From assembly GCF_004010195.1 (NCBI RefSeq), contig NC_057749.1, positions 16,308,524-16,372,523 of the forward strand: DNA of 64,000 nt, written 5' to 3'. Shown piece by piece: positions 9,001 through 58,700 of this stretch. A model generated the notes under the pieces. It saw nothing but the letters and a program-made list of their open reading frames with translations, made no database searches and was not told the origin of the DNA. How positions within the stretch are numbered: the first letter of the stretch is position 1; each line of letters opens with the position of its first letter. The position numbers and the translations under genes were made by a program. The stretch is from Chiloscyllium plagiosum (lineage: Eukaryota).

Positions 9001-12000
9001 AGATGGTGGGTTGTTTCATCATGAGAGTCACCACAAGCCCAATCCTAACTTCACCCAATGGCCATACAGGTAAAAATAAGTAAATCGTTTCACTGTTTGG
9101 TTTCAGGAGATTACAAGACATTTCACAGTCACTGAAACATGTTTGCAATTCAGTCGCTGTTGTAATGAAGAACATTAAATTGCATGTAATAAAACGACTT
9201 AGTCTTTTAGAGTTTAGAATATCATTAAATAATCCTGTTATGATCTCCCAATGTCTGGTATATCACCATCTTATGTTTCCAGTGTCCCCTTACCGACTGC
9301 TTTGTCCGTCACAAGCTTTCCCATGGTGCTCTCCACTGCAGTCAATGTCTCTCCAGGCTGTTGTTCTGTTAACAGTCCAATTTGTTTCAGGTTGGCGAAC
9401 GTAAGGATGTGATCATAACCATAACTCTGAACAGAAATAAATGCGAACAGAGTTACAGATCAGGCGAGTAAAGTGCCAAAGGGAAGCGGTCTGTTAATTG
9501 TGGTTGGATATACTGTACACAACTATAATAAAATGTACAGTCAGGGTACAAATCCCACAAAAGCTTTAATTAGAAATTGTCCCTTGTACAATCAGATACC
9601 ACTCAGTCTGGTTTCAGAGATCACTGCATTACACCAGAAGTCAAATTTCCCACAATCATGAAGATCTTGATGAATTTGTGTTATTAACAGACCATGTCCC
9701 AGTTCAAAAAATCAGGAATTGTAAAACCCATTTCTTTATAGTCAATGAAGACAAGATAGTTTGAGCTGACATATATTTACACCATATCAAGGTGATCAAT
9801 AATGGATGGTGACGGAGGTCGGCTGTGGAGTAAATATCACTGCTTGCTTCAATCACATTAAGCCTGGGTTGGGTGTCAGAACACATTGTCAATGTCATAG
9901 TTGGATATATAATGCATCAATCAATCAAAGACTCTAGGTGTGGATATCACGTTCACCCTTGGTTTAATATATCAGTTCGCCATGAATAAATGAACTGGCA
10001 ACCCTGCAAAGTGAGGAGTCCACTTTGGGACTGATAGAATACAGCAGTTCTACATAATGTACTCTAGACAATTGTGATTTAACTACTATGTCAACATGAT
10101 CCATTGAAGCAGATCCTATTGCAATACTGATGCCTCCAGAACTTTAAAGGAATATATCCTCCATTATTGCTACTGCAGGACAAATGTAGAGGTAGAGACC
10201 ACTGTCTTTTTGGATATGACTGTATGGTCAGGTTGAGCAACATTTCTTCCTGATCTCTTCCACTCCTTTCGTCATCACTTCATACCTTCTAGCTGTCAAC
10301 CTGTGACCTCTCCATCTTTAGCTTTCCTCCAATCCCCTAATCCATAGGTATTTCTCTTATGCTTGTGAAAATTCCTTCCTAATCTTCAAGAAAGGACAGT
10401 TGACAAAAGATAAAGTTATGATTTTTAGCCTCTAAGCAGCATAATAGAAAATATTTTTCCCTCAGTCCATAGCATCAAAATTAGCTCAGTGGGAAGCACT
10501 CACAGTAGTGGATCAAAAGGTTGACAATTCAAATTCCAGGAGTGGAACTTGAACAAATAATCCAGACTGATGCTCAAGTGGAGGACAACAGGATGAAGGC
10601 CCACCATCATTGTCTCAATATTGCCCACAGCCCAAGGACAAAACATAATCCAAATAGCTCACATTCATGATCACTGCTGTATCAGTGATATCTTTCTTTG
10701 CCTACCTGCAAATACTGAGTTTTCAATGACCGATAATCCTTAGAAATCAATCCTGAGGGGAAATAACACAAACACACAAAATCATCAGAAGAAAAATAGC
10801 AAACGCAAAGTCTGAATGAATCCACAAACAATTAAGGTATTTTTCAATATATAATTTCAGTTACATCACACCGTAAATTTTTGCTATAAATTCTGTGTCT
10901 TACAACTGTGTCCTCGATAACCACGTGATGAAGGAGCAGTGCTCCGAAAGCTAGTGTGCTTCCAATTAAACTTATTGGACTATAACCTGGTGTTGTGTGA
11001 TTTTCAACAAAGTCTGAAGTGAAGACAGAAAATGTGACATGGCCAAGACAGCCTGTCAGCATCTCGAATGAGAATGGATAGAGGAATGTTTCAGGAAAGG
11101 ATCCTTCATTAGAGAAAAGATCCAGATATATAAAGCAGGGAAACTTAAACGGCCAATTAAAAAGAAATGTCCAAAATAATTTGCTTGTGCTCTAACTCGT
11201 CTTTAAGATTTGGACGGACATGGGTGCTCATTTAGGCTTCAAACTTACCATTTTCTGTCTGTGAAAGGAGACACATCAGTCGAAGACTCTCAAGTGGCGA
11301 AATCTGAAAGATCAAAATGATTCAGGCATAAACAGGATGTGGGTGGTAACAGTTGCCTGTAAAGTTTGGAGACATAAAACACCAGGCTCAGAAGTTTGTT
11401 ATTCTTCTGCAAATCACTTTTTTTGCCTCCCAACCAACCATACATCAACTAAATTGCCTTCCAGTAGTTCGTTCACGTGTGTACGTCTTAACCGCAAGTG
11501 GTGGTTGGGTATTGAGCTAATTATGGGGCAAAACACAGCCAGGTTCACATCTCTCCAATGGCACTGCAACTTTCACCACCTGTCTCAGCAACTCACAATG
11601 GAATGGGAATTAAACTTGGGACCTTGTTGGTCTGTTTAGTTACTTAAACAGTGCTTTCACTAACATATCGTTACTGAAGTTTTGGTCTTATGCAAAAGAT
11701 TGTTAGCACACTTTTAGTACACTTTCCAAGTGTACACTCTATGGAAATACCAATTACAGGCAATCCACAAAATACAGTATCATAGCTATTTTACTGTGAG
11801 GAATGACCATTTCTGAAATATGTTTCTCAGAGCCTCTGCAAATGAAGTGACCTGCCCAGTACTGGTATATTATCCAATAATTACTCACAATTAATAATAC
11901 CCATTCCAATTGTTACAATACACTTTTACACACACATAATTTCTTGTATATTCTGAACACGACTACCTCAATCTCAATAGCTGCACTTCAGGGTGAATGA

Positions 12001-15000: not shown

Positions 15001-18000
15001 CAACAACTGGAGAGAGTGAGCATAAGTGTCTGGAGAGGTGTGTGTGTCTGTGGAGGTGGTGGTACGCATTTGTCAAGTATTGGGAATAGGTCCGGGTGTC
15101 TTTTGGCTCTGTACATACTGAAGAGTTGGAGTGGATATTTAATAGCTTTCTTGGAAGCTAATTGTTTAGCTGCAGAAGAACCCGCCAAATTTGCTGACTT
15201 AAACAGTTCTTTTACAGTGGTCGAGACACAGCGGAATGCCAATCGGAATCAACTTCCCAGGCAATCCCTACATCAGGGATTCTGCAGGGTCCACACACAC
15301 AACTCCCACCTATGCTGCTGAAATGACTACAGGTCGTTCTGCTATAATGCATGTTTCGTTAATGTGAATTTGCTATAACACAATTAATGAAATAGGGACA
15401 CTGTTTCTAAAGCACGAACCTTTAAAGCAGATATTGGTTATAATGTGATTTTCTTATAACATGGGATTGCCTGAGAACGGAACTACCGTGTTATAGCAGA
15501 CTGACTGTACTTCCTGAAGAAGGGCTAATGCCCGAAACGTCGATTCTCCTATTCCCTAGATGCTGCCTGACCTGCTGCGCTTTTCCAGCAACACATTTCC
15601 ATCTCTGATCTCCAGCATCTGCAGACCTCACTTTCTCCTGACTGTACTCCTAGGTTATTTGAAAAAGTGGAGGGAGTTAGTGATAAGAATGTTAGCAAGA
15701 AGTGTCCTGGTGATAAAATTGCGGGTGGTGCATGCAAAAGAAAGGCTATAACACTGGAAGAGAAGCCAGATATTATAAAGCGTTTTGAGCGTAAGGACAG
15801 AATATATGATATAGCTCGCTTAACAGGAATGAGAGAGTGTACCTTACAATGATGATCCTCTGTCCCCGCATTAACAATATAAGTACTGTGTTCAATTTAC
15901 TTTCGTTTTGTTGGTAATATCATTTATACATTCATTCAGGCTGTGCTATACTTTGTGTTAGGCTTTTGGGTGATTTTTGAGCGATCATGAGTGATATTTT
16001 TTTGCTGGGCTGCCCCAAGCCCCACTTTTCCCATAGGCCCCATTATTTATATTAAGTGATTTTCTATTAAGCAAGGGTTCGCTGGAACACAACTATGGCA
16101 TTATAGGAGAATTACTTGTATCTGGCCATTGGAAAACCTGGACCATTATGTTTTATCATGTTTCTCAGCATCCCAAATGCTTCAAATACAAGTCATTTGA
16201 AACTTGGATAATTATTACCATATGGGAATCAGAATAGCCAGTTTGTGCATAGCAATATAACAAATAGAAATGTCTAAGAGGCTGCTGGAACTCTCTATGC
16301 TCCAAATAAAGGAAGGGCCTCGAAAGGAAGATGGAACTTCAATTTAATGTCTCACCTCTGATGACGCAGCATTTCTTCAGCAAATCAATAGTGCTTCAAT
16401 CCACATTTTGTACTCCAGTACCAAATAAGATTAAAGCCACAATATTTTCAATATTTTGACTCAGATGTGTGAATCCCACCAGCAGTTAATCACCTGTGGC
16501 ACAATTCTCTTATGTAACTCCAGGCTAGACTCTCGGGTACTTACGAAGACTCAATAATCGATGCTCTTGCTTTAAGTTCTTTAATTCCTGAGATACAAAA
16601 TCCTTCATCTGTTTAATGTCCATCCCTTGGCGTTTCTGCATGCAATAGTGAAAAGGAGTCACTCTCAGCCAGATCTGTAATACCTACAATGAAATAGCCC
16701 CTTATTCTTTGCTGATTTTCTCAACTCCTCTCCTGAAGATGCTGAATCTTGCTGTAGTAACTCACACCAAGACCAGTTTTCTGATCAACCCCCAAGCTCA
16801 TTCACCGATAGTAGATATGGAATTTCCTCTCTGTTTCTCACGCTTTAAGATACTCCTTAAAAACTGCCACTGTACATCCTATTCCCATTCTAATATCTCA
16901 GTGTCAAATCACATTTTGTAACTCTGTGATATATCTGGGGAAGGGGGAAATAAATATGTTGAGACATTACATAAATTAAAGTTGTTTTTGTGGGGTGCAG
17001 TTCTGTAGTAAAAACCCTCAGACACCTCTTTATTGTTCACAGGATGTTGGCATTACCCACAGGGGGAGCTTTTATTGCCCATCCATATTTGCCCTTAGGA
17101 TGGTAGTGGGAAGCTGCCTCCTTGATCTGCAGACAAATTGACCCTTCTTCAAGAGTGAACCTGAACTCAGGGTGTCAGCGAGTTTGGGATCTTGAATGGT
17201 ACCACTGCCGAGCTCGATTTTGTCCACAAATAACAGACTCTCGCAAGTGCATGAACCACAGAAGGTTAGTATGGATGTAGGGCAAGTAATCAGGAAAGAT
17301 AATAGAACTTTATGTTTTATTTTGACGGGAATGGCATGCAAGAGTAGAGAGGTTACACTTTAGTTATATAGGGCATTGGTGTGACCACATCGGAGTACAC
17401 TGGTCACTGTACTTATGGAAGGATGTTAAAGTGCTGGAAGTGGTTCAGAGAAGCTTTACAGGACTGAAACCTGGAATGAGCAGATTGCTTTATGAGGAAA
17501 GGACGCAGAGGCTAGGCCTGAATTCTCTGGAGTTTTGGAAGAGTCATGGGTGACTTAAGTGAAACATATAACATCCTGAGAGAACTTGACCGGGTGTATG
17601 TCAAAAGGATATTTCCTCTTGCGCAGGTGTCTCGATCTGAGACTTTATAGTTTAAAAATAAGGGCTCACCCATTTAAGACAGGTGAGGAAACATTTACTA
17701 TTTTTTTTCCTCAGAGGACTGAGTGTCTTTGGAATTTCCTCCCTGAGAAGACAATGAATGCAGAAGCTTTAAATATTCTTAAAGCAGAGGTAGATAGATT
17801 CTTGATGACCAAAGGGATGTGCAGGAATGTAGGGTTGAGGTTAAAATCAGATCAGCCACGATGTGATTGAATGGGAAAGCAGGCTTGAAGGGATGTGTGG
17901 CTTATTGTTATTCCGTGCACATCTGGACTGTGAGCCCTGTCTTGTTTTTCATCCTGCCTAACTCATGGCGCTGAACACTCCCCCAGTTATGAATAGGAAA

Positions 18001-21000
18001 GGCTAAAAATCTAGCTGCAATTGCCTGCTCTGCATCATTGACAGGACAGTGCTGCACTGACTGAGCCATCAATCAAACTTGGGATCTAGATTATTGGATC
18101 TGAACAAAGAAGAAATTAGGCAATTCACCCATGTAAACACAATGTACTTGTGCCAAATCTTTCTGTGCTCTCTTCCTGAAGGTGCTAACTCATGAGTTTA
18201 GTTAAAATAATTTAGCAGGGACACCACCAATTGTAATCTGTACAATATTTCTCAAAAGACAAAAGGTGCCTCTCACAGGATGGCATTACTATGATTGAAG
18301 AGCTATCTTTCATTGATACTCACATCATACTGTGTCTGAAGCCTTCTTGCTTTCTGACTTAAGAAACCGAATACATTGGAGAAATGCTCATTCCGAATCT
18401 CTTTGAAAACCTGTAAAAGTAGCAACATATAAACAATCAATTTACTTGCAACAGTTAAAAACACACAAGTAAACGCTGCTCAGCTTGATTGCTGAACCCC
18501 AACCTTAGGGTAACCAAAGGGTAATAGAGTTATTGAATAATTTGTCAAGGAGGCTGCTGAAGCAGAAAATATAAATAAACACACAGGATAATTTGAGAAG
18601 AGAAAAAAAAGAGAAAATTAATGAAAAGGAAAATTAATGGAAAGGAAAATTAATGGAAAGATTAACATAAATAAAGAATAGCTTTTAGCATCATAAGTAT
18701 GCCCAATCACAGATCTATACAATTCGGAATCAATTTAATTCCTCTTTGGAAATTTCATCTTAACTAGGGATTGCTACTTTAGGTGTCAGTGTAATGCTTG
18801 TGTCAATACAAACCTTCATAAACAGCTGATAAAAACATCATCACATCTGAAGCACTGACCCTGTCTGAACCTACCCCTCACAATCCCTCAGCCCCATGCA
18901 AACTCCTGTGGGAGAGAAATGCACAGAATAAATGTTCCACAGACACTGAGACATTTCCTGTCTGAAATGAGTGTTACTGGACAGAAGCATCACCCAAAAA
19001 CCCCATCTCCCCTCCATGCAATGTATGTCCAGAAAGAATATGTTCAGCTCCCTTCTCAAATACATAGTTGGCAACTTTTTCGAACAGTTGACTGCTCTTT
19101 TCCAAACCAGTCCCTCAATTAACACACATTATATCAATCAACCTAACAATCATCGGTTCAAAATGTGAAAATTATTGCCTGGGGATTTGTTTGTCGTTCA
19201 ACATACTGTGGTGTTCATCGACTTTCACACCATCAGCTCCCTTGGCTGGTATAAATACTTAGCCCGTTATCCGACAGACTTGCTTCTCTCTCTATGGATG
19301 CCACCAGCATATTTTGATAAGTATTCTGAGCATTTTCCACTTTGCTTCAAACTACCAGCTGCAGCAATACTTTCATAGAGTCATAAAGCATGGAAACAGA
19401 CCTTTCAATTCAACTAGTCCACACCAACCACATTCCCAAACTAAACTAATCCCACCTGTCTGTGCTTGGTCCATATCCTTCCAAACCTTTCCTAATTGTC
19501 CAGATGTCTTTTAAATGTTGTAACTGTATCTGCATCCACCACTTCCTCTAGCAGTTCATTTTACACATGAACCACTGTGTAAAACAAAATCGCTCCACAT
19601 GTCCTATTTAAAACTCTCATCGCTCCTTAAGAATATGTCGCTTAGTTTTGAACTTCCTCACTTTAGGGAAAAGACCCATGCTATTCACTTTATCTATACA
19701 CCTTATGATTTTATAAGGTCACCCCTGAACCTCGTAAACTCCAGTCTATCCTGCCTATTTTTATATCTCAAATCCGCGCCCCCCCCCCCCCATTGTGAAG
19801 AGTGCACTTGCTTTCTTATTCATTCATTTATTGCCCATCCCTAATTGCCCACAGACCAGTTAAGAACCAATCACATTGCTGTGGGTCTGGAGTTACATAT
19901 CGCCCAGACCATGTAAGGAAGGCAATTTCCTTCCCTAAAAGATATTAGTTGAGCTCGATGGATTTTTCCCAACAATCAACAGAGAGTTCATTATTAGACT
20001 CTTAATTCCAGACTTTTTTTAAAAAAATTGAAACGATTCTCCCCCTTTGGCCATGGCAAGATTTGAACTCAGGGCCTAAGATCTCTCTGGATCAATAGAG
20101 ATAATCGAACTAGGCTATCAACTCCTCTACATCATCTTGTGGGCTACAAGTTGCTGTTACAAACTGGAGAAGTGATTTAGGATTTGTTCTCATGAGGTAA
20201 CGGCACTAACATTAGTCATTGCTAAACACCTGCACTGACAACATTCAATCAGAACAAATTAACAGTACAAAACCATTACAAATTTGGCAGACTGCACCTT
20301 GCACATTTATAAACAATAAAGGAAGAATCTGGGAAGTGAGAAAAATGGGATTTTTTGCCACATTACTAAACAAAAAAAAAAGCAGCTCAGACTGTAAACA
20401 AATGATAAGAGACTCTGGAGATTGCGTCAGTTCGATTAATGACCTTTTTCACTGCTGAAAGGTTTTTCACTTTTGTACTCACCTTATCCTGAGAGTTCAG
20501 CAACACTTTCACACTTTTATTCAACGAAGTCACTTCTGAGCCAAAGTCCACACTTCCTGAAATTTACCAGATTCCACAGTTAATTCTCCAGAGAGGAGGC
20601 CAGTTATGTGCATCCACAGGCTGAAAATGAGGGACTGCATCAAGGACAATAATGAACTGTCCACCATCGTAACCAATCCAAAGGCCTAATAGTCTCACAC
20701 TCAGAAATCAATTACCTTCAATCACACATTCTTCTTGTATTCCTGTTCTCCAGAAAACACTGACGGAGCGATGATACGGTTTTCTCCACCTCAACAGAGT
20801 CCCAGTATGCTACCTGAGTGACCATTCTTAATCTTGTGTTGTATTAATATAGTAACGTAGGTCTTAGCAGCAGGGTTAGGCCACTTAACGTTTCAATCTT
20901 GCTCTATCATTCAATAAGATCATGATAGATTATAAGAAATTGCTGGCGAAATTCAGCAGATCTGACAGCGTCTCCGGCGAGAAAGAGATAACGTTTCGAG

Positions 21001-24000
21001 CTCATTGATCCTTCTTCAGAATGTTCCAATAAACCATTCTGGAGGAGGAGCTTTGGACTTGAAACATTAACTCTTTCTCTCCGCAGATCTTGAGAGACCT
21101 GACGTTCTCCAGTAATTTCTGCTTTTGTTTCATTAGCATTTCCAGCATCTGCAGTTTTGTTTTATGAAAGATATGAGTACTGTCTCAACTCCTCTTTCCT
21201 GCTTGCCGCTATAACCCTTGTCTACCAAAAGTCCATTAAACCCCGCCTTGAATAAAATCAATTACCCTGCCTTCAGTGCTTTCTTGGGAACAGAACTTCA
21301 CACATTTTAAAACTCATTGTGAAAAGAACTTCCATCTCCATCTTAAAAAGGGAGATTTTTAATACAGCAAACGTTTTATTAACTGACACCTATGGGACCA
21401 GAAGTGTGACAGCTGATCAAATATTCCAGTCAATCAAGAGGTCCACAATGCAAAAACACACCCAAAGTAATTAAAATATAATACAGGGGGTATACGTATT
21501 GCTGTTAGACTTTATTTACAGCACATAAATCACTTTAATAATGATGCAACTTTGCCTTCAATTAAACTTAACGGCAGACAGTCTTTTCATTCACACCCTC
21601 TGACTACTTGGACATTACGAAGATCTTCCAGTATTTGAGATATATAATTTTTGCCGCTAGTCGCAACTGCTGGTTCATTAGATGCCTGTTAAAACAAAGT
21701 TTGCTGTACTTAAAATGTACCCTCTAATTCGGGTCTCTACCACAAAAGGGAATGTCATGCCAACATTCATTCTACCAAGCTTTCACAGGATCATATGTGT
21801 TTCAATAAAATCACCACGGTAGTGTTAATAGCCTGTTCGACCATACTGGTTTGGTAGGTAATATTCTGACTTAAGTCAAATCTCATAGGTTCAAGTCCCG
21901 AAACAGATACTTCAGCACACAATATTCCCAATATTCCTTCTTTTTCAGCAGATCATTCCTTTTTCTCTAAAAGTATAAAACCCATCACATTTCCACCTCT
22001 CTTCAGTTCCAAAAAAGATTTATATTAAACTTGTAACCTTCACTCCGTTCCCCTCCCCACAGATGATGCTAGACCTACTGAGTTTCTGCAGCACTTTGTT
22101 TTTATAGCCTTTGTGATGAGGCATTAAACCATAGTTACAACTACCTTATAATGATGCAAAAGGCTGCACATCACTCTCACAAATCCCAGAAGTGAAGATC
22201 GCTATTTACCACTTCACTCCCACTCTGCCTGCCTTCAGCTCTAGTCAATTCTAAAAATACATTTGCTGTTAATACACCATCAATAAAAGCAATAAAGTGG
22301 AAACTCACCGCATTTTATTCTGAACACATCATCCACAAGTCCTTCATATACAACTTGAGAACACATGGGAGTCACATAATCCACATCTGCAAACAAAGCA
22401 AATGGATTCAAATTCAAAGTATAGTAAGGCTATAATAATCGATACATAACCCATTTACAGGTAGACCTACACCAGGAACTGTATTAATTCAGGTTCAACA
22501 GGTTAAAATGCTGACTTGTGATTCTTTTCATGTATAATGTGGGATTTGGGAGTCACTGGCTATAACAGCATTGTTTTCTATCTCCAAATGCCCTTGAGAA
22601 GGTAATGGTGAGCCACCTTTCTTGAACCACTGAAGAGCATGTGGTGCAGATACACTCTCAAGGTTGTGATGAAGGAAGTTCCAGAATTTTTACCCAATGA
22701 CAGAACTATAATGCTGTTGCCTTGCTAAGGCAGGATGATGTGTAGTTTGGAAAGAAACTTGCAGGTAGTGATGTTCCCATGTATCTGCTGTGCTTGTCCT
22801 AATATGTAGTACTTGAGAAAGGATGTACTGGTACTGGACGGGGTGCAGAGGAAGTTCACTAGGTTGATTCTGAATTCATTGGAATTCAGAAGATGAGGGA
22901 GAATCATATAGAAACATATAAAATTATGAAGGGAATACATAAGATAGAAGTAGAGAGGATGTTTCCAATGGCAGGTGAAGCTAGGACAAGAGAGTATAGC
23001 CTCAAGATTAGAGGGAGCAGACTGAATTGAGAAGGAACTTCTTCACCCAGAGGGTTGTTAATCTATGGAATGCCCTGCCCAGTGAAGTAGTTGACGTTAC
23101 TTCAGCAAATATTTTTAAAGCTAAGGTAGATGTTTTTTGAACAATAAAGAAATTAAGGGATACGATGAGAGCTCGGGTAAGTGGGGTTGAGTCCACAAGA
23201 AGATCACCCATGATCTACTGAATGGCAGAGCAGGCTCAAAGGGCTGGATGGTCTACTCCTACTCCTAGTTTTTATGTTCTTATTAGAGTGAAACAGAAAC
23301 AGAAATTTCTGGAAAAACTCAATTGGTGTGGCAGCCTCTATGGAGAGAAAGCAGAGTTAATGTTTTGGGTACAATGACCCTTCCTCAGAAGAAGCTGTAG
23401 AGTAAGTTTGAAAGGAGGTGCTTTGGCAAGTTGCTGCTGTGTATCTTGTGGATGGCAGACATGGCTGGTGTGAATGCTGGAGGTGGGAAGTGCCAGTCAA
23501 ATAGACTCATTTGTTTTCGATGAGCTTCTTGAGACATGTCAGAGATACACTCATCTAGGCAAGTGGGAAGTATTCAATCACACTCTTGACTTGCCCTCTG
23601 TAGAATCTTTGAAGAGTCAGGACGCGGGTTACTGATTGCAGGATTCCCAGCAACTGGCTTGTTCCTGAAGCCACGGTACGCGTATGGCTGATCCAGTTCA
23701 GTTTGTGGTCAATAGTAACCCCCAAAATATTGTGTACAGGAACCTGACAAGTCAGGGAATTAGAAATGTTCTGAGAAGCGCAAGTATATGCATCACAACT
23801 GTCCTTGGTGCCCCTTAGGACCAACATTTCCTGCACCTGATGATTATCCAGCAAATCATGCAGGGAAGTGAGAAGGTTATGCCCCTTGGGTTAAATGAAA
23901 AAAAGTGAAAGAACGCAAACAGCAACATAAAACTGTTGAGAAACAGTCGGTTTCCCTACTGCTCACTGTGTTATTGACTTATCACAGAATCCCAACCATG

Positions 24001-27000
24001 TGGAAGCAGGCCATTTGGCTCATTGAGTCCACACCATTGTTCGGAAGAGCATCCCATCCAGATTGTGACCCCCCCAACCCTATCCTGTAATCCTGCATTT
24101 CCCCATGGTTAATCTACATAGCATTCATATCCTGGACTCTATGGGCAATTTTGCTTGGCCAATCCACTTAAACTGCACATCTTTTGACTGTCGTAGAAAA
24201 CTGGAGCACCCAGAAGAAACCCATGCAGACACGGGGAGAATGTGCAAACTCCACACAGTCACCAGAGGCTGGAATCGAGCTGGCTCTCTGGCTTAGAGGC
24301 AACAATGCTAATCACTGTGTTTGAACAATGGCCGAATACTGAGTCTGCTGCACCTACAATGCTTTCTCACTACAGGCAGACAGCCTTCCTACCCTTATAC
24401 CCAAGCAACGTCCCTGAATAGATACCAGAGAGGAGCCAGTGGAACAGTATCTCAGCCATGGTCAGTGCCTGCTGTACAGGCAGGAAGATACATCGCTCAA
24501 ACAAGCTGCCCCAGGTTGACTGGACAATCATTGCTCCAATTTCAGGACTCTTTTCTGCATATTGCTGAGTTTTGTTATATTGCAGTACCTCGGTCGAGAA
24601 AGAAAACTCGACCAATCTCAGCCTGACGTGGTTTAATTTCATTCTCTGAATCCTCCACCATCTCCTTCCAGAGCTCATAGGTCATCTAATCCAGAGGGAA
24701 AAAGAGAGGGAAGAGATTAAAATAATCAGAAACCAAAACAGTAATTTTGCATGTTTGATAGTAATTTTGCATTCATCAAAATGGGGGAAGAATGTGCTGA
24801 GTGTGAAGTACTTCAGGGCAGATATATCACAAGGCTAAACAGAGCAAAGATCCCTCTACACTGTCTTATCAAACGCTTCCAGGACTGGCAAGTGTAGGAC
24901 TCTGAGGCCTATGCACAGCAGTGAATTCTGGAACCAGAATTCAATGCCATTGGCGGGGTGCTGACACCAATGACTGTGTGTGGAACATTGGAATGGTTTT
25001 GTGTGTGTACAGCCTAAGGGGAAAATGTTACAGCACTGGGTTAGACATAGAAGGAAGTTCCCTCTACAATGTGCCCATTAAACATTCTCAGGGGAGGTAT
25101 AGCATGGAATCAGATGGATGGTAAAGCTCCTTTTATACTGTTCCATCAATTACTCCAACGGTTAAGTAAATCGCAACTTGGATAGAGAAGTGTTCCTTTA
25201 TTTTATCCAAACAAGACTCAGTCAAAAGTTCAAAACAATATGCCATTTGGCCCTTTTGCACACAAGCCACTCAGAAATGTCTGTGGATGACTGAATTAAA
25301 GATGCTGAATACTGTGGACCTGAAAACACTAGGAAGCGGTCAGAGACCACATTCAAAGTGAATTCATGCAGCATCCTTATAAATTACAAGAGGAAAGTTT
25401 CCTTCCCAAAGTCTGAGATGGAGATACGGCCAATATCGCAAAAATAGAAGGTCTCACAGTCAACTTAACTCAGCGCCTTTACCTTTTTATAGTCTGTGCA
25501 GGAATAAAGCGCATTATCTGGACTTGCACTTTAGTCATAGTTCAATTCTCAAACCCTGCTACGTCTGTACATGTGTGGAGGGAAGAACACAACTCAAAAT
25601 TACATAGTGACCTTTCATCTCTGCAGCCTTGATTTCAAAGAAACACTGACTGATGGCTGTAACAATTCAATACGGAACGAGTTCACCGACACAAATGACA
25701 AGGTTCAGAAGATGAATAGGCTCGTGTAATTCTAACCAGCCACTTTCCACATCCTTTCTTCATTAGGAAACTAATGGTTCCACAGAGGTGATCAGATGAA
25801 TTGTCCAATTAATAATTCATTTTCATTTCATGTTCTATTACCTTCGCACATCTGCCAATTCCGTACGTCTTTATGAAAGGTCCAAACAGGGAGTACAACA
25901 AGTGTAGAGCCTTTGCCACCGTACAGATCCATCGATGGTCACCCTCCTGAGGGCAAACACATGGAAATATATGGTACTGGACCCCAGTTGCAACAGCCAT
26001 CTTAAAATGCAACCTTGAACTATGATATTACTTTCCTATCCCTCACTGCTTTCAGAATGTGGTGAAGCTCCTTGAACCATTGTATTTAATATCAGAGTGT
26101 CTAATGAGGCCAGTTTAGGGAACATGAGGGAAGAAAAAAAAAGTAACTTATAAATTGAGATGGAAGGTAGGAGAAGGCTTACATGGAACATAAAATCTTG
26201 ACAAATGGCAAGTTTCAGGCTGTAAATTCCAAGTTAGTGTAGATTGAGTGGCTCAATAACTTGGCACAGTGACTTTACCAACTGACCCACACACTTCATT
26301 ACATTTAGACAGATAGTTCAAAACCACTTCAAGACCTTATTTCCTCCCCTAAGAGGTTACTTAAACCCCAAACCCCCAAGTATTAAAGCTTTTTGTCACC
26401 TGTTCCGAGTCAGATTTTGTTTGATATTACTTCTGTAAAGTGGCTTGGCACATTCTGTGAAGCTAAAGGTGCGAATGTGGGAAAATATGACATTGTCGAT
26501 TTTGACAAGAACAAAAAGCAAATTGTCTAAATGGTGAGAGATTGCAGAGTTCTGAGGTGAAGAACGTGGGAGTCCTAGAGCATGAATGGCAAAACTTTGT
26601 ATACAGTGGGTACAGCAAGTCATTAGGTAAGTAATAGAATGTTATCATTCATTGCAAAGGGACTCGATTACAAAAATCGGGAGGTGATACTTCAGTTATA
26701 CAGGGTACTGGTGAGACCTCATCTGTAGTACCATGTACAGTATTGATCTCCTTACTGAAGAAAGGATGTTAATGTGTTGGAATCAATTCAGAGAAGGTTT
26801 ACCACACTAATATCTGGAATAGGCAGGTTGCCTTATTATGAAAGGTGACACAGGTTGGGTTTGTATCTATTGGAGTTTAGTGAGTAAGAGGAGATTTGAT
26901 TGAAATACATAGGGACCTTGAGAGGTCTTGACAGGAATGATGCGGATCAGATGCTTTCTCTTGTAGGAGAATCTAGGTTTAGGGGTGACTATTCAGAAAT

Positions 27001-35124: not shown

Positions 35125-35445
35125 GAATCATAGAATCCCTACAGTGTGGAAACATTCAGCACAAGTCAACACCGACCCTCTAAAGAACAACCCATCCAGA
35201 CTCAGCCCCTACCCGAGCCCTGTAACCCTGCATTTTCCATAGCTAATCCACTGCACATCCCTGGACACTATGGACAATTTAGCATGGCCAATCCACCCTG
35301 ACCTTCACATCATTGGACTGTGGGAGAAAAAAGGAGCACCCGGAGGAAACTCACTCTGACACAGGGAGAACGAGCAAACTCCACACAGACAGTCGCCTGA
35401 GTCCCTGTGAGGCAGTAGTGCTACGCACTGAGCATTGTGCTGTCC
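35125..35445 (-). mobile_element. HE1-like V-SINE
   Basis: Same family, with tRNA-like head. Confidence 0.8.
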
Positions 35446-35470: not shown

Positions 35471-35880
35471 TGAGAAAAATATGTGAGTAATGGATGTAGT
35501 TTGGTCTCTGAGCTGGAAGGTAACATTATCAGTGAGCCTCCGGATGAGGCACTGGTGGCATGGCCCACTTTCTATTTATGTGTTCTGGTTGGATCCAACC
35601 AGGACTCTATCAACAAACACATTGACTTGGATCCCATTTGCCACCCCCTAAGAAAAAGAACAGGAAATGGTATCACCACAGGAAATAACATCACCACCCC
35701 CAAGGAAACCTAAACACATAAATAGAAAGTGGGTCATGCCACCAGTTTTTCATGGAGGCTCACTGATGATGTTACCTAGTATGGTGTCGAAACGTCTGAA
35801 AATGTACCTCCCAGCTCAGCGAGCAAACCTACATCCAGCACATCAACGTGAGTTACAAATCTTACTCAAAACTCGCTAAT
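35471..35880 (+). mobile_element. Penelope-like element 3' end with inverted pLTR copy
   Basis: SNQDSINKHIDLDPICHPLRKR resembles the endonuclease-region C-terminus; 35471-35585 is a reverse complement (with deletions) of 35713-35870; hammerhead motif inside. Confidence 0.8.
35760..35799 (+). ncRNA. Minimal type-I hammerhead ribozyme motif
   Basis: tca-CTGATGA-t-GTTACC-tagtat-GGTGTC-GAAA-CG-TC-tga: core intact, one stem II mismatch, 3-bp stem I, palindromic ACGT stem III. Confidence 0.7.
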
Positions 35881-42470: not shown

Positions 42471-42977
42471 GAGTTATATCAGTCTCAAAACATTAACTCT
42501 GTTTCTTCCTTCACATATGCTGTCAGAACTTGCTGAGTTTTTCCAGTATTTTATATTTTTATTTCAGATCTCCAGTCAACTTGTACTGTACCTTTACTTC
42601 TGTGAAGCAGAGCATGTCTAAATGAGCTATGTAACCTCAGATCACGTGGAAATTGATCCTGTAAAGCTCCAGGTAAGATGTCCCCTTTTATCATCCTCCA
42701 TAGATGGTTATGTCCAATCAAACTAGTGCTCCTTGGTCATTACAGAAATTGTGTAAAGAATGAACAAGGTGCACATTTTTAAAGGCACATGCACTCAACA
42801 TATGTTAGCTCTTCTCCAAGTTATAGAGCAGGATGGGCAATACTGGAATCCAGATACTGCTGTCAGTGGCCCCTGCAGATACTTTTAAGTTGGACACAGG
42901 AGCTGCAGCTACTGTTTTGTCAGACAGCCTTAGGTAGCTGAGAGAGGTTACCTTAGAATCTTCAGCTGGTCTCTGTC

Positions 42978-43769: not shown

Positions 43770-45540
43770 CAGACAATGCTACACTATGGTTCAGGCCAAA
43801 AATGCTCAGGACATCATCCATTAACCTTTGGTGCATGGAAAGTATGTTACAAACAGAAGTCTGACATATGCTAAGCTTTGTTACAATGGAAAAACAATTA
43901 TGGAGACCTCATGCTGTTCTTGGTCATTGCAGGTTTTTATTATATAGGGCAACTTGTATAGATTTAGATTTCTTTAGTTAGCAGACTCCAAAGACTCTCC
44001 CGTCCAAGCATTATAAGAAGTTGGTCAGACTTTTCATTTTTCTCAAAGTATAAGTTGGAAATGGTGGGAAAATAAGGCACCAAAAGGCAATGTCCAGCCA
44101 CCAGTAGACATTCTAGCCAGAGACTTGCTCTTTTGGAACATTGTTATAGAGAAGGAAACCAGAATACAAGTTGCTCTTTTACTAAAATCCAAAATTGTAG
44201 ACCTTCCTGTACTTTGGGACACTAAGAATCCAGCCGTCTCTTTTGAGGAGAATTAGTTATTTCTTGAAGAAGGTGGAATAAATAGTTTACTTACCACACA
44301 GAATCTGCCAAGGTGGTGCAGCAACTACAGTCACAGTTAGATGAAGCAACAGCTGACAGAGTACATTGACTGATCCCTGCTGCGAAGCAAGAAAATAGTC
44401 GTATACTAACTTAATCACTAAGGAAAGCAAACTTCAAAGTTTTAAAGGTGGCCACAGAATCTCCTGCAATTTATGAAGTTATGAGATCTTCTAGTCATGC
44501 AAGGAAGAGGTCTCAGAACTTCAAAGCAAATTTAAAACGGTTGAAGCTTTAGAGAGAATGGGTGGTGTCGCACCCAAATAGGCAGAAGTCAGTCAATCAT
44601 TTGCAATAAATCTTTTTAATTGTGCACACAGAACATGAATGTGAGTTTGACATCCTGAGAGAAAACCCTCAGCAAAGGCCCAACAAGAAGAAATATAAAA
44701 ACTTCCAAGTAGAGGCATAGATAGTCATAGAGTCATACAGCACGGAAACAGACCCTTTGGTTCAATCAGTCCACACCAACTACGTTCCTAAACTAAACTA
44801 GTCCCACGTGCCTGCGCTTGGCCCAGATCCCTCCAAATCTTTTCTATTCATGACCTTATCTAAACGTCTTTTAAAAGTTATACAGAGTTATAGAATATGG
44901 AAACAGACCCTTTGGTCCAACCAGTCCACGCTGACCATGTTTAGTTAATGATAAACTACCCAGCGAAAGAGAGATCCTTAAATTGTACAGAGTTAATACT
45001 CAACAGGAAGAAATTGTTAATCTGAAAGAGAAACATCAGCATGACAAGGAAACTCTAGAGAGCTTTTTACAGCAAGGCCATGAACTCAACCAGAATTGGC
45101 ATAGTCTCATTCCATGAGTGGGATGACTGGGTCCAGCTGTTGGTTGTCAGGCAGTACAATCAAGCTCTGTAGGCTGGAAACAGGCAATCAACAGAAGGTT
45201 AACAAAAAGAGCTCTCACAGTGAAGAGATATATTAGAGGAAAAGACATTTTCGTACAGAAATGTTCAGAATTTCAAGATCAAAATGAACTATTAGCTGCT
45301 GAAGATATTTGCTACAATTAATGAACAACTACTTAGTCTTTCTAAAAGGAAGAAAGTGAGGACTGCAGATGCTGGAGATCAATGTCAAAAAGTTGGCACA
45401 GCCGGTCAGGCAACGTCTGAGGAGCAGGAGGTTGCTGTTTCGAGAGATGCTCTTCCTGATGAAGAGCCTTCTAAAAGGAAACCTAGAGGAAGAGAACTAT
45501 TTCTTATTAATGACAGAGATCATCTTTGGAAACTGTCCTT
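43770..45540 (+). pseudogene. Decayed, apparently intronless CCDC88 (Girdin/Daple)/HOOK-like sequence
   Basis: Colinear broken peptides PLV.W, DLPVLWDTKNP..FEE, HDKETL..HELN/RIGI, KGNLEEEN with stops, frameshifts and two TE insertions; similarity judged from memory. Confidence 0.55.
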
Positions 45541-47260: not shown

Positions 47261-47924
47261 TTAATTTTCCTGTTTAGGGTTATTTAAGGAGTCCACATGA
47301 CTAACCCTGTACAGAAAGTTGCCTTCCTGGTCATAAAATTCACAACCCTTTTGTACAACTTCAATATGGTTTTCAGACCCACTTGCAATGAACATCTGCA
47401 AATCCTCATCAGTCTCTGGAAGACCCAGTAATTGTTCCCCATCAGATGTACTGCTGCTGGTTTCATTGTATTCTTCCCTCTCCACACAATCAACCACCTT
47501 TCTTCCAGACCTGACCTCCTTCATATCAGCACTGCTTTGAGATTGGAGCTTCTTGGAGACACTCTGTTGGACAAGATCCATTCTGCCAGTTTTCTCTCCA
47601 GTGGTTTTGTGCATTTTACTATTTAAGTCAGATTGTGCAGGATGGATTACTATGTCCGAAGAGAGTCTGGGCTGGATGGTGTCATCTGTGATCGGTTTAG
47701 ATTCGATCACTGCTTTTACATTCAGAGAACTGGCAGTCAGTTGCTTTGCCCTCTGTGGGAGAGTCAGAGTCTGTCCTTTAACATTTGCATCTTGCTTCAT
47801 CATCCTCTTCAATGAAGGGGTGAACTTGCTTCTCAGCACTCTCAGGACAACATCTTCACTCACTGAAAATCCCTCTGCCAGCTGTGACACACTCCACTCC
47901 TCTGGGGACTTTGCTCTCAAAAAC
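47261..47924 (-). CDS. NGRN: NGRN exon 3 (last)
   Basis: FLRAKSPEEWSVSQLAEGF...NNPKQEN*; cag acceptor. Confidence 0.94.
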
Positions 47925-49876
47925 CTGAAACATGTTAGAAATCAAATTAATTTAAAAATCAATCTAATCCAGGGACCCAAGAAATTTTCTGGGGACCTGG
48001 ACTGGAATTCTATCATGGCAGATGGTGGAATTTGAATTAAATAAAGTCTGGAATTAAGAGTCTAATAATGACCATGAAACAATTGTCAATTGTCAGAAAA
48101 ATCCATCTGGTTCATTAAGTCCTTTAGGTAAAGAAATCTATTGTCTTTACCTGGTCTGGCCTATTTGTGAGTCCAGACCTACAGCAATGTGGTTGATTCT
48201 TAACTCCCTTCTGGGTAATCAGGGACAGGTAATAAATGCTGGCCTGGCCAAAGATACCCAAATCCTACAAATGAAGATAATCTATAATTCTGCCATATTG
48301 ATCACAACCCAAGAAAATGTATGCCCAGCTATTGAATCTCACGAGGCATTGCAGCTCAACTGAGCTCATACTCAATGGCTACGTAAAACTCAGCTGTTTC
48401 CTATCTTGCTGGCTCAGAACACTGAATCCAACTCAGCCATGTCCACACTGATGAGGGTTTCTGGGCAAGCCCTGCTCATTACAGTAACTAGTAGGGTGTT
48501 GATATTTTAGTTGTCAGGAAGCCTCTCCACTCTCCTGCTGCTCGTTTCAGTGGAAATTCAAGACTAACAAGCAACAGTCACAATCACAGTGAACAGTCCT
48601 GGCTTTAACTCTTACCTCATCTGCTGCATTGCTTGTGTCGTTAGGGTCCGTGGGGGAGGACCAGAAAGACCCAACTCTGCCTGAATTCTCCGATACTTAA
48701 TGGCTTTCTGTTTCCGCTTCTCAGCTCTGCATGTGAGATGTGGAACAGAACAATAATTTCCAAAACCTACTTTGACAATTCAAAGAGCACCTTTGCTGAT
48801 TATTACTAATGCAGCATACAACGGATAACTGAAGTTATTCAAATGTTTGAACATTTTTGTTTGTATGGTTACCACTTATCAAATGTATCTTGTTAACCAA
48901 TTCTACAGTAGTTAGTTTAAGTTAATTCCTGTGATGTGGTACTTAAAGTTAACTAATATGGCAATAGTTAGTATGAGTTTATTAATAATGTAATAGTTAA
49001 CTAATAATGTAGTAGCCAGTATGAGTTAACGTGGCAGTTAATGAGAGCTAACAAATGCTGTAGTAGTGATGATTTGGAGATGCCAGTGTTGGACTAGGGT
49101 GGACAAAGTTAAAACGTAGATTTCGCTGCTCCTCGGATGCTGCCTGAACTGCTGTGCTCTTCCAGCACCACTGATCCAGAATCTGGTTTCCAACATCTGC
49201 AGTCATTGTTTTTACCAACACCAGGTTATAGGCCAACAGGCTTATTTGGCGGCACTAGCTTTCGAAGCATTAGTGCATTATCTGAGCTGAGATGGCACCT
49301 ATTGTTAAAAGGTATCTTAAAAATGTAACTTTTTATAAGTTCTGGCATTTATATATGAAGGAACTGAAACTACCATGATTATAAAAGATGAAAAACTCAA
49401 GCTAAATTTGCTTAATGTTACATTCCATGACACTGCAATCCCATTAGTATCTTGTCCTCCACAACCACCTGATGAAGCTGGTGCTTCCCAATTAAACCTG
49501 TTGGACTATAACCTGGTGTTGTGGGATTTATAACTCGATAGCAGTGAGTATGAGCTGATGTGGTCGTTAGTGAATTTGTTAATCAGCTGGTAGTTACTGA
49601 GTTAACTAACGCTGCGGGAGTTAACTCTCAGTATGAGTCAATGCGGTGGTTAGTCTGGGTTAATGTGGTAGTTACTGAGAGTTAATGAATGAACCGCTTT
49701 CACCTGATTATTTCCTCCAACTCCTTCCCCTCGGCCTCGGCCTCAGGCTCAGAGCCGGCCCCGGGCTCTCCGCCGCCTCTGGAGCCCCGCAGGGAGCGGG
49801 CGGCCTGGGCCGGGACCGGGGCCTGAGCCCGGGGCAGGAGGCGGAGGATCCCCCGAGCCACCACCGAGACCCACAT
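47261..49876 (-). CDS. NGRN: Neugrin (mitochondrial 16S rRNA/mitoribosome module); 3 exons, about 315 aa
   Basis: PPRTLTTQAMQQMRFL..PEEWSVSQLAEGFSVSEDVVLRVLRSKF and C-terminal EFYDQEGNFLYRV match neugrin; Arg-rich presequence-like N-terminus. Confidence 0.93.
47960..48280 (+). mobile_element. Second SINE-like family
   Basis: Shared core ccatctggttcactaatgtcctttagggaaggaaatct; further copies at about 5300-5630, 7610-7905, 29700-29970 (+) and 19820-20110 (-). Confidence 0.7.
48616..48726 (-). CDS. NGRN: NGRN exon 2
   Basis: AEKRKQKAIKYRRIQAELGLSGPPPRTLTTQAMQQM; 111 nt. Confidence 0.93.
48900..49690 (+). repeat. Degenerate (gagttaactaatgtggtagttagtat)-like tandem array split by nested Penelope-derived elements (about 49065-49535)
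   Basis: The same motif occurs on both sides of the insertion in NGRN intron 1. Confidence 0.6.
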
Positions 49877-49960: not shown

Positions 49961-51469
49961 GCCCTAGTCAGAGAACTGCAGCTGACACTTGACCCAGTTG
50001 ACTTGGAGACATTTCAAATTTATAGATATTTATAATCAGACTGTTAAGAGGCGTTCTGGCACGCCCTGGAGAAGTTAGGACTTGACTCCACACCTCCTGA
50101 CTTAGAGACAGGGACACTACCACTCCACCACAAGAGCCCTGCCAATTCATTCATTCATTTGTCTCCATTCTTCCTGCTCTGAAAGTGCTGGTTCTGGCGA
50201 GGGACAGAAACTCACCCAAGTAGCCATCAGTATCTGTACAATATTGGACCATGTATTCCAACAAAACTCCTTGTCCTGGTTATCCAAAGACAAGAGAATT
50301 GCATTTATTTAGCACTTATAATCACCACTGGACATCCCAAAGCGCCTCAGTTTAATGAACTACTTGTGAAATGTTGTAGGAAAAGCTATAGCGATTGTAT
50401 CAATGGGAAGCTCCCTAATGTGAAACAAATACAGAAATTGCTGGAGAAACCCAGCAATTCTGTCAGCATCTGGGGAGAGAAAATAGTTAACATTTCATGC
50501 CCAGTGACCCTTCTTCAGAAACCCACAATATGATCATGACTAGATAAAGATGCTGATTTGGGATAAATGTAGGACACATCCCTTGCTCTTTTCCCTGCAC
50601 CATGGTATTTTAAAAATTTCATTCGAGGCAGAGAGTTGTCGGGGTAGCTTATCTCACCCAAAAGATTTAGGATGACCAGATTTCCCAGTTTGGCCAAACA
50701 GTCTCTGCCCAGAAGGTAAAATAAGTAAAACTTGAGAATGACACACATTGGCTGGACCTGTCTTGCATACATCCAGTACAACTGGCATATTAATTTCTAA
50801 ATATTACTGTGTAACCTTTTGGGTCATTTTTCCCTCTGGACAGCTTTTCATATAATGCTTCTTTGTCTTGATAATTATCTAGAAATTATTCTCATGTTCA
50901 ATGGAGTTCTGACCCATTCCTTTTTGTGATCTTTGTGAAATTTTGTCCTCTGTTTTGTATGCACCCACCAAATTGCATTGCATGCAGCAAACCTGTATTC
51001 CTTCTTCCCCTCCTGCCTACTTGATGTGTCCAAGATATTTGTTGCCACCTGTTTGGCACCTACACCTCCTTTGCTGAGTTGCCTTTTAAATGATTTGAGG
51101 AATTAGGTCACCAACTCTGGCTGGACATATTCTGCATGTTGTCATGACATGAACCCCCTTCTGTAATTGGCCATCAACATGTCATACATTGGGAGTCCCA
51201 AGGCTTTTCAATGTTTTGACTTTTGAAAATTTGGTCACTTGCTTAGTACTGCACTGGACTGCTAAACTGGAATTTTGTGATTAAGCCTGGGATAAGGTCA
51301 GGAGCTTCAACACAAAAACCTAGTGACTTAGTGAGAGCCATGGACAACACCATATCCATGAATATGCAATTCCAGCAGCTTATTTAATTCTTTACCATCA
51401 CTTGGTGCTGAAGCCAATCACATCTGTCAGGCCCCTGGTCAGTTAACGTGGCAGAAACTTGTTTCAGGA

Positions 51470-55304: not shown

Positions 55305-55770
55305 AGAATGTGAAGGCAGGACATTACGCCCACCGAGTTCACACTGACCCTCCAAAGAGTTTCCTACCCAAACCCACCCATCCTTGTAGCCCTGCATTTC
55401 CCATGGCTAACCCACCTAGCTGCACATTCCTGGAGACTTTGGGCAATTTATCATGGTCATTCCAAGTAATCTACACATCTTTGGACTATAGGAGGAAACC
55501 GGTGCACCTAGAGGAAACCCAGTAGACACGGGGAGAATGTGCAAACTCCACACAGACAGTCACCAAAGGCTGGAATTGAACTTGGCACTCTAAGATAACA
55601 GAGGTAAAAACAATGACTGCAGATGCTGGAAACCAGATTCTGGATCAGTGGTGCTGGAAGAGCACAGCAATTCAGGCAGGATTTCGAAGCTCCTCGGATG
55701 CTGCCTGAATTGCTGTGCTCTTCCAGCACCACTGATCCAGACTCTAAGATAACAGTGCTAACCATTGAGT
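55305..55770 (-). mobile_element. HE1-like V-SINE interrupted by a hairpin element
   Basis: SINE body 55305-55601, resuming after 55741. Confidence 0.75.
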
Positions 55771-58700
55771 AGACTAAGTATGTTCTACAAAACTTGGAGT
55801 GGACTGGTGGGAATTGACAGAAACAAGTAGCTGGTCCTCTCCAGTAATGACAAAACACCAGGCAGCTGCCCATGTAAACAACAAAGACCATTTGTTCCAA
55901 AGAAAGTGTATCTTCACAAGGACAACCCCCATGTTGGACAAGCTGTCAAAGGAAATAGTTCCAGCCCCAACTTTGGAAATCCTGAAGACCCATTTACAGG
56001 TTATGTCCATTTCAAAGTTTCTCATCATCTGGATGATCATTTCAGTGGGTCATGCTCAATTTAGCTGGTGCTACCCACAGAAATGTTGGCAGAAAATAGA
56101 TATTAGTCTGTGACGCTGCAACTAAAGCAGATAAAAAGAGGTGGTGGCCAGATTTTCAATGCAGGGTCAGGAATCCAACACTCTGATGAAATCTGTGCTC
56201 TGACCCCATATCCAAGTTGCGTCATTCTCATGGCGCTACTTCTGAAATGCAAATAGCTTCTTTGATCAGGAACTGAGTTTGGTGCTCAGTACGTCAGAGG
56301 CTGAGGGGTGTAAAATCATGAGGGCTGGGATAAGGTAATTAGACAAGGTCTTTTCCCTGGGGTGGGGTAGCCCAGAACTAGAGGGCATAGGTTTAGGGTG
56401 GGAGGGGAAAAATTTAAAATAGACCTAATGTTTTCATGCAGAGGGTGTGTGTATATGGAATGAGTTGCCAGAGGAAGTGGTGGAGGCTGGTACAATTACA
56501 ACATTGAAAAGGCATCTGGATGGATATATTAATAGGAAGGGTTTAGAGGGATATGGACCAAGTGCAACAAATGGGACTAGATTAGGTTAGGATATTTGGT
56601 CAGTATGGATGAGTTGGACCGAAGGAGTTGTTTCCATGCTGTACATCGTTATGACTCTCAGTGGCTTTGAGCTGCTGCAGAAGGTGGGATTGCCTCTCGA
56701 CTATAAGCGATAGAGGGGTTGCCATGCTGCAAACTGCCTCTTGCCTTGCTGATGACAGCAGGCAGCTCCTTTGGGGGAACAGAGCCACAGACAAGATGGG
56801 TAGGAGCAGTGCTCATAGTGCTACGGCATAAATTTTAAAACCAATGGTGTGTAGTTTACCATGATCTCATGATGAACCCAACTAATGTGCACAAGACTGT
56901 TCGGGCTTTCCAGAAAAAGACAGTCACAAACAAAGAAGCTCTTAACGATCTCCTGACAGGGGCATGAACTGGCAGTGACTACATCTCCTGCTCCTTCCCC
57001 ACCAGCCAATCCTTTGAAAATCTGAAACTGTCCTGGAGCCACCAGGATCCCAAAACAACCTCCACGGCCTTGATTTTTAATTCCTGCCCACTCCAAGTCC
57101 TGGGCACTTTCAGAACCTGGCAAAAGATGTTCCAAAGTTTGAGGCCCAGGAAAGGTAAAGAGTGACAGTAATGGGAAAGACTTTTGGGATAGTTAGTTTT
57201 CAGGAGCAAGGTACACCTTGTGCTACAGAATATTTAGGCTGCAAAGAGGAACTCACAACCAACAACCTCTATTTATAAAGGACTTTTAATGTAACAATAC
57301 TGCACCATGTAGCTTCCCAGAAATATCATAAAGAATCAATGTACTTTAATCAGAGTAAAAAAAATCGGAACAGCAGTATCTATAGAAACAAGAAAAGGCT
57401 ATTCAGCCTGTCAAATTCCACTATTCAGTTAAGATCTTTTAGTGGGTGGGTAAATGGAGCTGAATTCACAAGAAGATCAGCCATGATCTTATTGAATGGC
57501 AGAGCAGGCTCAAGGAGCCAGATGATAGATTAGAGAGGCGCTGGAAAAGCATAGTAGGTCAGGCAGCATCTGAGGAGCAGGAAAATTGGGCAAAATGTCT
57601 TTTTTCCTGCTCCTCGGATGCTGCCTGACCTGCAGTGCTTTTCCAGCACCACATCTCCAGCATCTGCTATCCTCACTTATACTTCAAGGAGCCAGATGAC
57701 CTACTCCTGCTCCAAGTTCTTATGGTCTCATCATGGCTGATTGGTATCAGAACTTCATCCACTTGCCTTGGATCTGTTATCCTCACAGGCAGTCGAAAGC
57801 AGTTTTAGCAGGTGCATATCTCACATCAGAACATATTACATTTCATCATTTTAACTTTTATTGGTAAATTTATGCTGGGGCCAACAACTGAGATCAGCTA
57901 ACTCAACACAGGCAAGAATCAAACTGCAACCGTTGAATGGAACTTTAATGGTTTTGCTGTTACATTGATGACAATACAACTTCAGGGACAGAGAAAGGTA
58001 AAGTAACTGGATCAATCTAATAGCTTGCTTACAGCTGTGTAAGAGTTTCAGTTATTGTAGGAGGGATATAATTATGTATTGCTAAAATAGGCAACCTATA
58101 TGAAGAAGAAATACTTTAGCAAGACAATGTTAAAAAAAAATATCATTTTCATTTATTTGGATAATTTGTCCAACCCTTAGAAAAGAGTTTGTGCATGAAC
58201 ATTCCTCAATCTTTGGCAAACCATCCATCTTCCCTACCCCACCGTGGATTGTACAATGGAACCTGTTCAGACCCAGTTCAGTGTCTCCAGTATCCTGCTG
58301 CCAACATGAAATGCGTTTGTCTCTCTTCTCAGTTCATGCTTAGGTTCCTTTTATTTTTCCCCACCTCTTCCCACCCTGGGGAGAAGGAGTTTAAAAGCAT
58401 AGACTTCACCAGGTGGTGAAAATGTTCTCCAGCTCGAAGAGTTGGAAGGGGAATCCAGCAATCCGCTTCTCGAAATTAGTTCAGCCGTCTAACAAGGAAG
58501 AATTGGTGAAATTTGTTACTAACTGCTCTGTTGAAAGCACTACCCCCAACTGGGGCACAATTCCATGGACGCTAACCCCAGGTGGTCATTCTGCTATAGC
58601 CTGATAATCTTTGTGTTCTGCCCTTGAGCATCACTCAATGAACCTTGACTTTGACCTTTCCTTAATTTCTGCTATAAAGATGTTTTCTATTTTTACCATA

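Follow-up and report, generated by a model that had tools for sequence, protein, structure and literature searches.

Penelope-like elements (PLEs) that encode an endonuclease (EN+) leave complex insertions. Three studies (PMC8557442, PMC3846280, PMC2377424) describe pseudo-long terminal repeats (pLTRs) carrying a TATA box and an initiator (Inr), adjacent inverted copies that are truncated at the 5' end, tails, and solo pLTRs; the pLTR promoter has been shown for the fly Penelope and predicted for rotifer elements. For Poseidon_Ac of the green anole, it is reported that both strands are cut and extended, that two internal start sites bound the tail, and that uncut RNA is used (Frangieh et al., 2024, PMC11167929). 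Here we describe the short hammerhead-bearing copies of four families (A to D) dispersed over 64,000 nucleotides of the shark Chiloscyllium plagiosum (NC_057749.1, positions 16,308,524 to 16,372,523; hereafter the window). The four families are pLTR end units, each a minimal hammerhead plus ~90–125 nt, of PLE families that bear open reading frames (ORFs). Within these units, the shortest Neptune-type insertions are probably cDNAs that extend from an internal start as far as the 5' terminus of a transcript that is capped and uncut and has its start at the first stem of the ribozyme.

The shark copies have the same parts in the same arrangement as EN+ PLEs: an upstream ORF with reverse transcriptase (RT) and C-terminal GIY-YIG domains, a tail of 30–40 nt, an inverted 5'-truncated copy, and target-site repeats. 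According to the same three studies, however, the promoter of the fly Penelope is internal and TATA-less, and an intron precedes its ribozyme; the RNA of the shark elements would instead open with the ribozyme, as its first 32 nt. Solo pLTRs of rotifers are described as few in number and attributed to recombination, whereas here they are numerous and flanked by target-site repeats. Poseidon_Ac (PMC11167929) shares with our copies two internal start sites around a 30–40 nt tail, extension of both strands, and dispensable cleavage, and family D resembles the anole element in having its ATG where stem II begins. Families A, B, and C differ from it in being of Neptune type, and the first ATG of the A ORF lies downstream of both start sites (locus L223); the main text of PMC11167929 contains neither RNA start mapping nor genomic stubs ending at the ribozyme edge.

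A survey of PLE hammerheads (PMC4209133) describes an extra base between A9 and G10.1, a G10.1–C11.1 pair, a short stem I, and a palindromic 15.2–16.2 stretch, together with many families per genome, mostly single motifs ascribed to truncated PLEs, and opposite-strand pairs, all as found here. In contrast, we count >31,000 exact A cores, compared to ~4,000 hammerheads for coelacanth and 9,000 for Xenopus under the survey's own descriptor; its results and discussion name no shark and do not mention 5' ends piling up at stem I. Non-LTR retrozymes, according to PMC7229834 and bioRxiv 10.64898/2026.07.22.740005, resemble the shark copies in their type-I hammerhead and PLE kinship, and internally deleted minis of subfamily A2 (224 and 320 nt) fall within their size range. 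Retrozymes are, however, tandem arrays with one ribozyme per unit and a circular RNA, while the window copies are single or head-to-head, and head-to-tail ribozyme units occur only in a minority of A2 loci outside the window. The bioRxiv study sampled one chondrichthyan. A literature search, largely limited to open-access papers and made without Dfam or Repbase, turned up no account of these shark families and none of stubs anchored at a start site. The class itself is already known, and the shark families are ordinary though very abundant members of it.

Hammerhead-bearing end units and their source elements

Unit positions take C3 of the core CUGA as 0, which places the predicted cut between +27 and +28. 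Genome-wide pattern counts refer to the 3.56-Gb assembly (reversed control 0 for the exact counts of the A tail, B, C, and D), and unselected comparison DNA to 247,886 bases of the same genome. By homology to natural copies (reversed control 0), insertion groups number 17 for the window and 66 for the unselected bases, ~1 per 3.8 kb. A first-pass annotation of the window had put these dispersed repeats at about one per 5 kb, and the motifs it listed do lie at or within named copies. Its impression that inverted pairs are frequent is also borne out, as 20/66 groups have arms on both strands. A 32-mer from the family A tail has 29,917 exact genome matches and a family B 30-mer 32,610; the counts for the C core (303) and a D 29-mer (136) are floors, these families being older and diverged. 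With a descriptor for perfect minimal hammerheads there was one match in the window (15514) and none in 20 simulated 64-kb sequences. A looser form of the descriptor returned nine matches in the unselected bases, all of them family members (reversed 0; shuffles 1 in 20). At two or more mismatches the descriptor falls to chance level (11 window matches vs. 2–10 simulated), so the broken window cores rest on family homology rather than on the motif. Comparison of the window with Rfam, with E allowed up to 10, gave no hammerhead family, which implies that these minimal forms escape it.

The PLE origin proposed for these repeats holds for all four families, each of which is joined to a PLE RT/GIY-YIG ORF end (ORFs were called by eye from motifs and by tblastn). 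For family A, the unit lies sense downstream of the ORF in 28/30 ORF-selected loci, and longer copies extend upstream into an ORF with RT thumb, linker, and GIY-YIG motifs. Relatives of this ORF carry PF00078 and, in 5/23 cases, PF01541; the closest named ones are bamboo-shark proteins at 78% and 74% (2/23 matches). Pfam profiles gave 0 matches on four ORF fragments, and PDB searches with an ORF piece and with the first host exon (see below) gave none. In 4/30 loci the family B unit is preceded, at a distance of a few hundred bases, by a related endonuclease end, and the like is seen for family C in 2/30. The RT-endonuclease linker CX2-5CxxC reads CNRRRCNTC in A and is decayed in C (L325); B offers the endonuclease end and thumb only, and its Neptune placement comes from similarity to A. 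Family D has a Poseidon-type endonuclease end upstream, no linker zinc finger, and, with its ATG at the start of stem II, an ORF that starts there (set against the text of PMC11167929). These motifs, as distinct from a tree, point to A, B, and C being Neptune-type and D Poseidon-type.

In two family A loci (L223/L251) the N-terminal frame has its ATG downstream of the tail, and in L251 it is followed by a gap, the GIY-YIG end, and then the unit. Next to an assembly gap the frame enters a proline-rich tandem repeat with a 12-residue unit, a possible reason for the absence of full-length A copies. Most ORF-bearing A copies (L061–L090) are missing parts between the thumb and the 3' untranslated region (UTR), at variable points and in some cases without N, reflecting either true deletions or assembly collapse. 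Three frames of >1,000 aa were rejected as long ORFs, being runs of N. A chimera in which an older A-like ORF piece is joined to the B 3' UTR at the same point recurs on four contigs (L181/L182, L288, L290, L293), and a fifth hammerhead-bearing family, related to D but distinct from it in stem II and in the sequence upstream, is present at L058, L063, L293, and L297.

The ribozyme is a palindromic minimal type-I hammerhead with core and stems I–III, as first annotated, although only one window copy is intact. The four-nucleotide palindrome in stem III, ACGT or AGCT, dominates in all four families as had been stated: among core-bearing copies from all loci it is ACGT in 146/165 A, AGCT in 44/47 B, and ACGT in 28/32 C and 11/19 D. 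The annotation had read differences in stem II as covariation. Covariation in the source elements stands, but it is clearest in stem I, where AUUC/GAAU of A2 is replaced by AGUU/AACU in C, and CCA/UGG (8 copies) by UCA/UGA (4 copies) within D; stem I of subfamily A1 has a U-U mismatch, and stem II within family A varies almost only in its loop. Stem I compensation supports selection on structure in the source elements, and cleavage activity is predicted. In RNA folding, stems I and II form in monomers and the catalytic dimer is not the lowest-energy form; cutting is predicted to require either a dimer or the element protein. A second cut just before A(-4), where the sequence has UC and then A, was rejected, because pairing of stems I and III is impossible in such a register.

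Ends of the copies and a proposed route of copying

The 5' ends of family A gather at the edge of the ribozyme. In a sample chosen only by the tail (66 copies examined, two dropped for gaps), 43 of 64 begin at -10 to +12, one at +13 to +27, and two at +28 to +33, the remainder lying further downstream (12) or further upstream (6); this sample under-counts long copies, as an upstream 31-mer has 16,177 matches. Exact A cores reaching -4 number 31,668 genome-wide, comprising 23,260 preceded by C and 8,408 preceded by A, G, or T, and 21/30 inspected members of the C-preceded class are long (18 by alignment, three of another subfamily by eye). From these figures, ~49% (37–63%) of A copies reaching -4 stop within three bases (-4 to -6). 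A second A set, which includes tail-selected loci, has 45/49 ends within 6 nt, none at 7–27, and four further away; in loci not chosen for A, 23/52 A matches begin at -11 to +12, none of them long. A cluster of starts at +45 in the latter loci reflects subfamilies of greater age and was kept out of the end counts, the "tac" preceding several copies was discarded as selection by the flank of the query, and a 5'-end table for family C was left out because one reference produced a spurious class at -255.

Initiators follow the consensus TCAKTY with a TATA box at a usual spacing of 30 nt, and retrocopies may gain an extra G templated by the cap. In family C, TATAAA begins 29 nt before the A of TCAGTT, and that A lies at -4; TCAGTT in C and TCATTC in A, both matching the initiator consensus, end at -1. 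TATAAA starts at -33 or -31 in 4/4 long C references and at -38 in 1/4 B references (as TATAAAT), with variants in the others. The non-templated base before ATTCC is G in 55, A in 32, and T in 13 of the first 100 copies listed, against an expected 26% for G (p 5e-10). In RNA reads and contigs from related samples, depth steps up at the ribozyme edge (X19: ~57/73 to 313/394), on both strands and with no piling of ends, which is what host read-through would give. The coincidence of the edge pile with core-promoter geometry and a G excess suggests that transcription begins on the ribozyme and that the RNA is copied without being cut. An explanation by a 3' splice site at -26 was discarded, since A2 lacks this site and its position does not coincide with the edge.

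The other end of the copies falls into two classes ~35 nt apart, at +90/+125 in A, +83/+122 in B, and +75/+115 in D, which agrees with the tail that separates the two internal start sites of the anole element (PMC11167929). Target-site repeats of at least 7 bp flank 44/64 family A copies, mostly 13–17 bp long with a mode of 14–15. An inverted arm, spanning the same stretch of the unit as the first, is present in 33/66 A copies, with its outer end at 83–96 in 25/33 and its inner end at -11 to +11 in 27/33, and 11/12 distinct inverted insertions of family B consist of one long and one short arm. Taken together, TATA and initiator would set the RNA start at -4/-5 in A and C and at about -8 in B; the element protein would nick both target strands, priming at +90 on one and at +125 on the other; and both cDNAs would reach the 5' end of the RNA and join by microhomology. 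The resulting stubs would be dead ends, because they lack the upstream TATA, and ribozyme cutting was apparently off the path that made these copies.

Several observations weigh against this route. Roughly 7,000 short A copies take in the C at -5, which means that more than one base serves as the end, and 5' ends in B are more spread (-18 to +16 in 16/30). Family A has only a T-rich TTTTATC, ~32 nt up, in the position of the TATA box. The G excess is partly confounded: all nine inverted copies examined have a G, which the inverted arm can supply, and among plain insertions the base is G in 10/21 (p 0.025, counting one near-duplicate pair), for the most part within the target repeat, where a G is expected if the terminal C of the cDNA aids annealing. 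RNA from one polyA single-cell run, a type of library ill suited to finding unit-length linear or circular RNA, showed no pile of starts or ends and both strands, as expected from host read-through. Family D has no pile, with 52/70 copies long, three at -16 to -18, where its TATA box points, and three at -5 to -1; the claim is therefore limited to the Neptune-type families. Finally, no intact full-length element was seen among the loci examined, owing to assembly gaps.

The edge could instead reflect ordinary 5' truncation with a structural stop, in which copying starts from a downstream pLTR and a folded or protein-bound ribozyme dislodges the enzyme. PLE insertions are heavily 5'-truncated, with inverted copies and tails (PMC8557442), many of our junctions are scattered over -3 to +12, and the few D copies that end at the ribozyme edge do so though their TATA points further upstream. 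A block of this kind should nevertheless halt the enzyme 3' of the stems and not just past the last paired base, and it leaves the TATA spacing, the initiator-like motifs, and the G excess unaccounted for, so we regard it as possible but unlikely.

For the inverted pairs, an origin by self-priming (fold-back) of one cDNA or from an antisense template, as opposed to priming on both target strands, has been proposed for rotifer PLEs from palindromic junctions (PMC3846280), and palindromic junctions occur in the shark copies too. Yet the outer end of the arm is non-random, lying at the other 3' end class in 25/33 A and 11/12 B copies, and we give fold-back a rather low chance. Given a protein able to extend both strands and to start at two sites, the pairs are most simply explained by priming on each of the two target strands, with fold-back less likely.

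Independent non-autonomous retrozymes, with short units transcribed, self-cleaved, circularized, and reinserted by PLE proteins, are very improbable: animal retrozymes have been proposed to derive from pLTRs (bioRxiv 10.64898/2026.07.22.740005) and A2 tandem minis recur with identical junctions, but every family runs on into a PLE ORF, no window copy is tandem, ends lie off the cut site (2/64 at +28 to +33), and the read-through motif that marks the minis has 393 matches vs. 29,917 for the tail. The minis join +203 to -18 (224-nt spacing) at three separate loci and +250 to -70 (320-nt) at five; loci reading past the tail are mostly such minis, with none in the window, and the first 100 of the 393 matches contain nine pairs spaced by 224 nt. 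The separate retrozyme-like families of the first-pass annotation were not upheld: the copies are single pLTR end units of ORF-bearing families, and the tandem minis are a small set elsewhere in the genome.

If transcription does begin on the ribozyme, as we favor, the Neptune pLTR might be likened to a retroviral U3-R-U5, with the TATA in U3, a capped RNA beginning with the 32-nt ribozyme, and a U5 ending at the two priming sites. The stubs would then be integrated strong-stop cDNAs, and a cut downstream ribozyme would leave the same 32 nt as a 3' R for strand transfer. We offer this only tentatively and think it doubtful: jumps from the -2 to -4 edge into internal positions at L221, L226, L236, and L244 fit, while the two units differ in L231, L242, and L248, which counts against it. 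Composite tandem arrays that mix different deletion junctions are found at L224–L227, L243–L245, L249–L250, and others of L221–L250, and some of their units restart exactly at -2 to -4.

Copies and host genes in the window

Cores have C3 at 10925, 15514, and 35763 on the plus strand and at 21019, 23388, 31037, and 50518 on the minus strand. The annotation had assigned cores to families A to D; their positions are right, but most are broken, including all four C cores on the minus strand (stem II or GAAA). The sole intact core is that of a short family A copy (15511–15639, +; -3 to ~+125), at 15514–15541 with stem II GGGC/GCCC, palindrome ACGT, and a predicted cut after 15541. A family B end piece (10817–11007, +) comprises 3' UTR, core, and an end at ~+83 with no tail. 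Its TATAAAT box (10885–10891, +), a putative promoter element 40 nt upstream of the core position, recurs in locus L181, and its core (10925–10953, +; stem II GGAGC/GCTCC, palindrome AGCT) has C3 changed to G. The family D copy (35491–35879, +; core start 35763, ATG at the start of stem II) has upstream 3' UTR, an inverted arm at its left end, an end at ~+115, and a T-T mismatch within stem II. Exact direct repeats of 11–16 bp, reported for five copies, are present at 5/14 insertions tested: 11 bp at 10806–10816/11008–11018 (the B piece) and 15501–15511/15638–15648 (the A copy), 12 bp at 45340/45469 around an old A-like copy (45351–45467, -; -8 to +122), and 15 bp at 55587/55741 and 16 bp at 57510/57684 around older A-like head-to-head pairs without a core (55602–55740 and 57526–57683, both strands).

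Homology identifies the remaining copies. Family C contributes a decayed head-to-head pair (20937–21156; minus arm -2 to +87 at 20937–21021, plus arm -2 to +119 at 21037–21156), a fragment (22060–22105, +; +50 to +96), and three short minus-strand copies: 23289–23390 (-2 to +99, GAAA box mutated), 30945–31037 (0 to +92, decayed core), and 50422–50520 (-2 to +98, stem II broken). Two old C copies lie at 38423–38539 (+; +2 to +118) and 42488–42575 (+; +23 to +108). A family A tail (33870–33907, +; +89 to +126) adjoins an assembly gap, a minus-strand B arm is interrupted by a plus-strand older A-like copy starting at +21 (49070–49268; 49112), and a B piece spans 49481–49535 (+; +31 to +84). Decayed core-like stretches at 11112, 41535, and 4197 (all -) are probably older relatives, below the homology threshold.

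Minus-strand exons of a Sec1-family gene lie at 4350–4514, 18306–18479, and 22283–22429 (3/25 frames), with a likely first exon at 33554–33643; we take this gene (4350–33643) to be VPS33B-like. These exon positions make the copies from 10.8 to 31 kb intronic, and the intronic location first annotated holds for copies at ~4.5–33.5 kb, between the Sec1-family exons, and covers only that part. Further minus-strand exons encode an HD domain (37519–37848; presumably HDDC3-like) and Neugrin (47264–47941). A G-rich unit of 19 bp is repeated about 50 times over 40128–41085, and some of its copies contain TTTAGGG. Two other abundant repeat families, at 3519–3762, 24136–24261, 35161–35391, and 55436–55558, and at 28833–29004, 33956–34123, 38155–38350, and 56447–56650, are ones we presume to resemble a tRNA-type short interspersed element and the 3' end of a CR1-type long interspersed element.

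Implications for Penelope-like elements

Abundant head-to-head pairs in introns could form short double-stranded RNA, a putative consequence for host transcripts. Should the U3-R-U5 likeness be true, the PLE hammerhead would gain a job and the regeneration of pLTRs would be explained. The new point is the edge pile coinciding with core-promoter geometry and a G excess. Starting and stopping points of copying are preserved in the junctions of copies that number tens of thousands, and the pile bears on two questions in PLE biology: the role of the hammerhead, and how pLTRs and inverted copies form.

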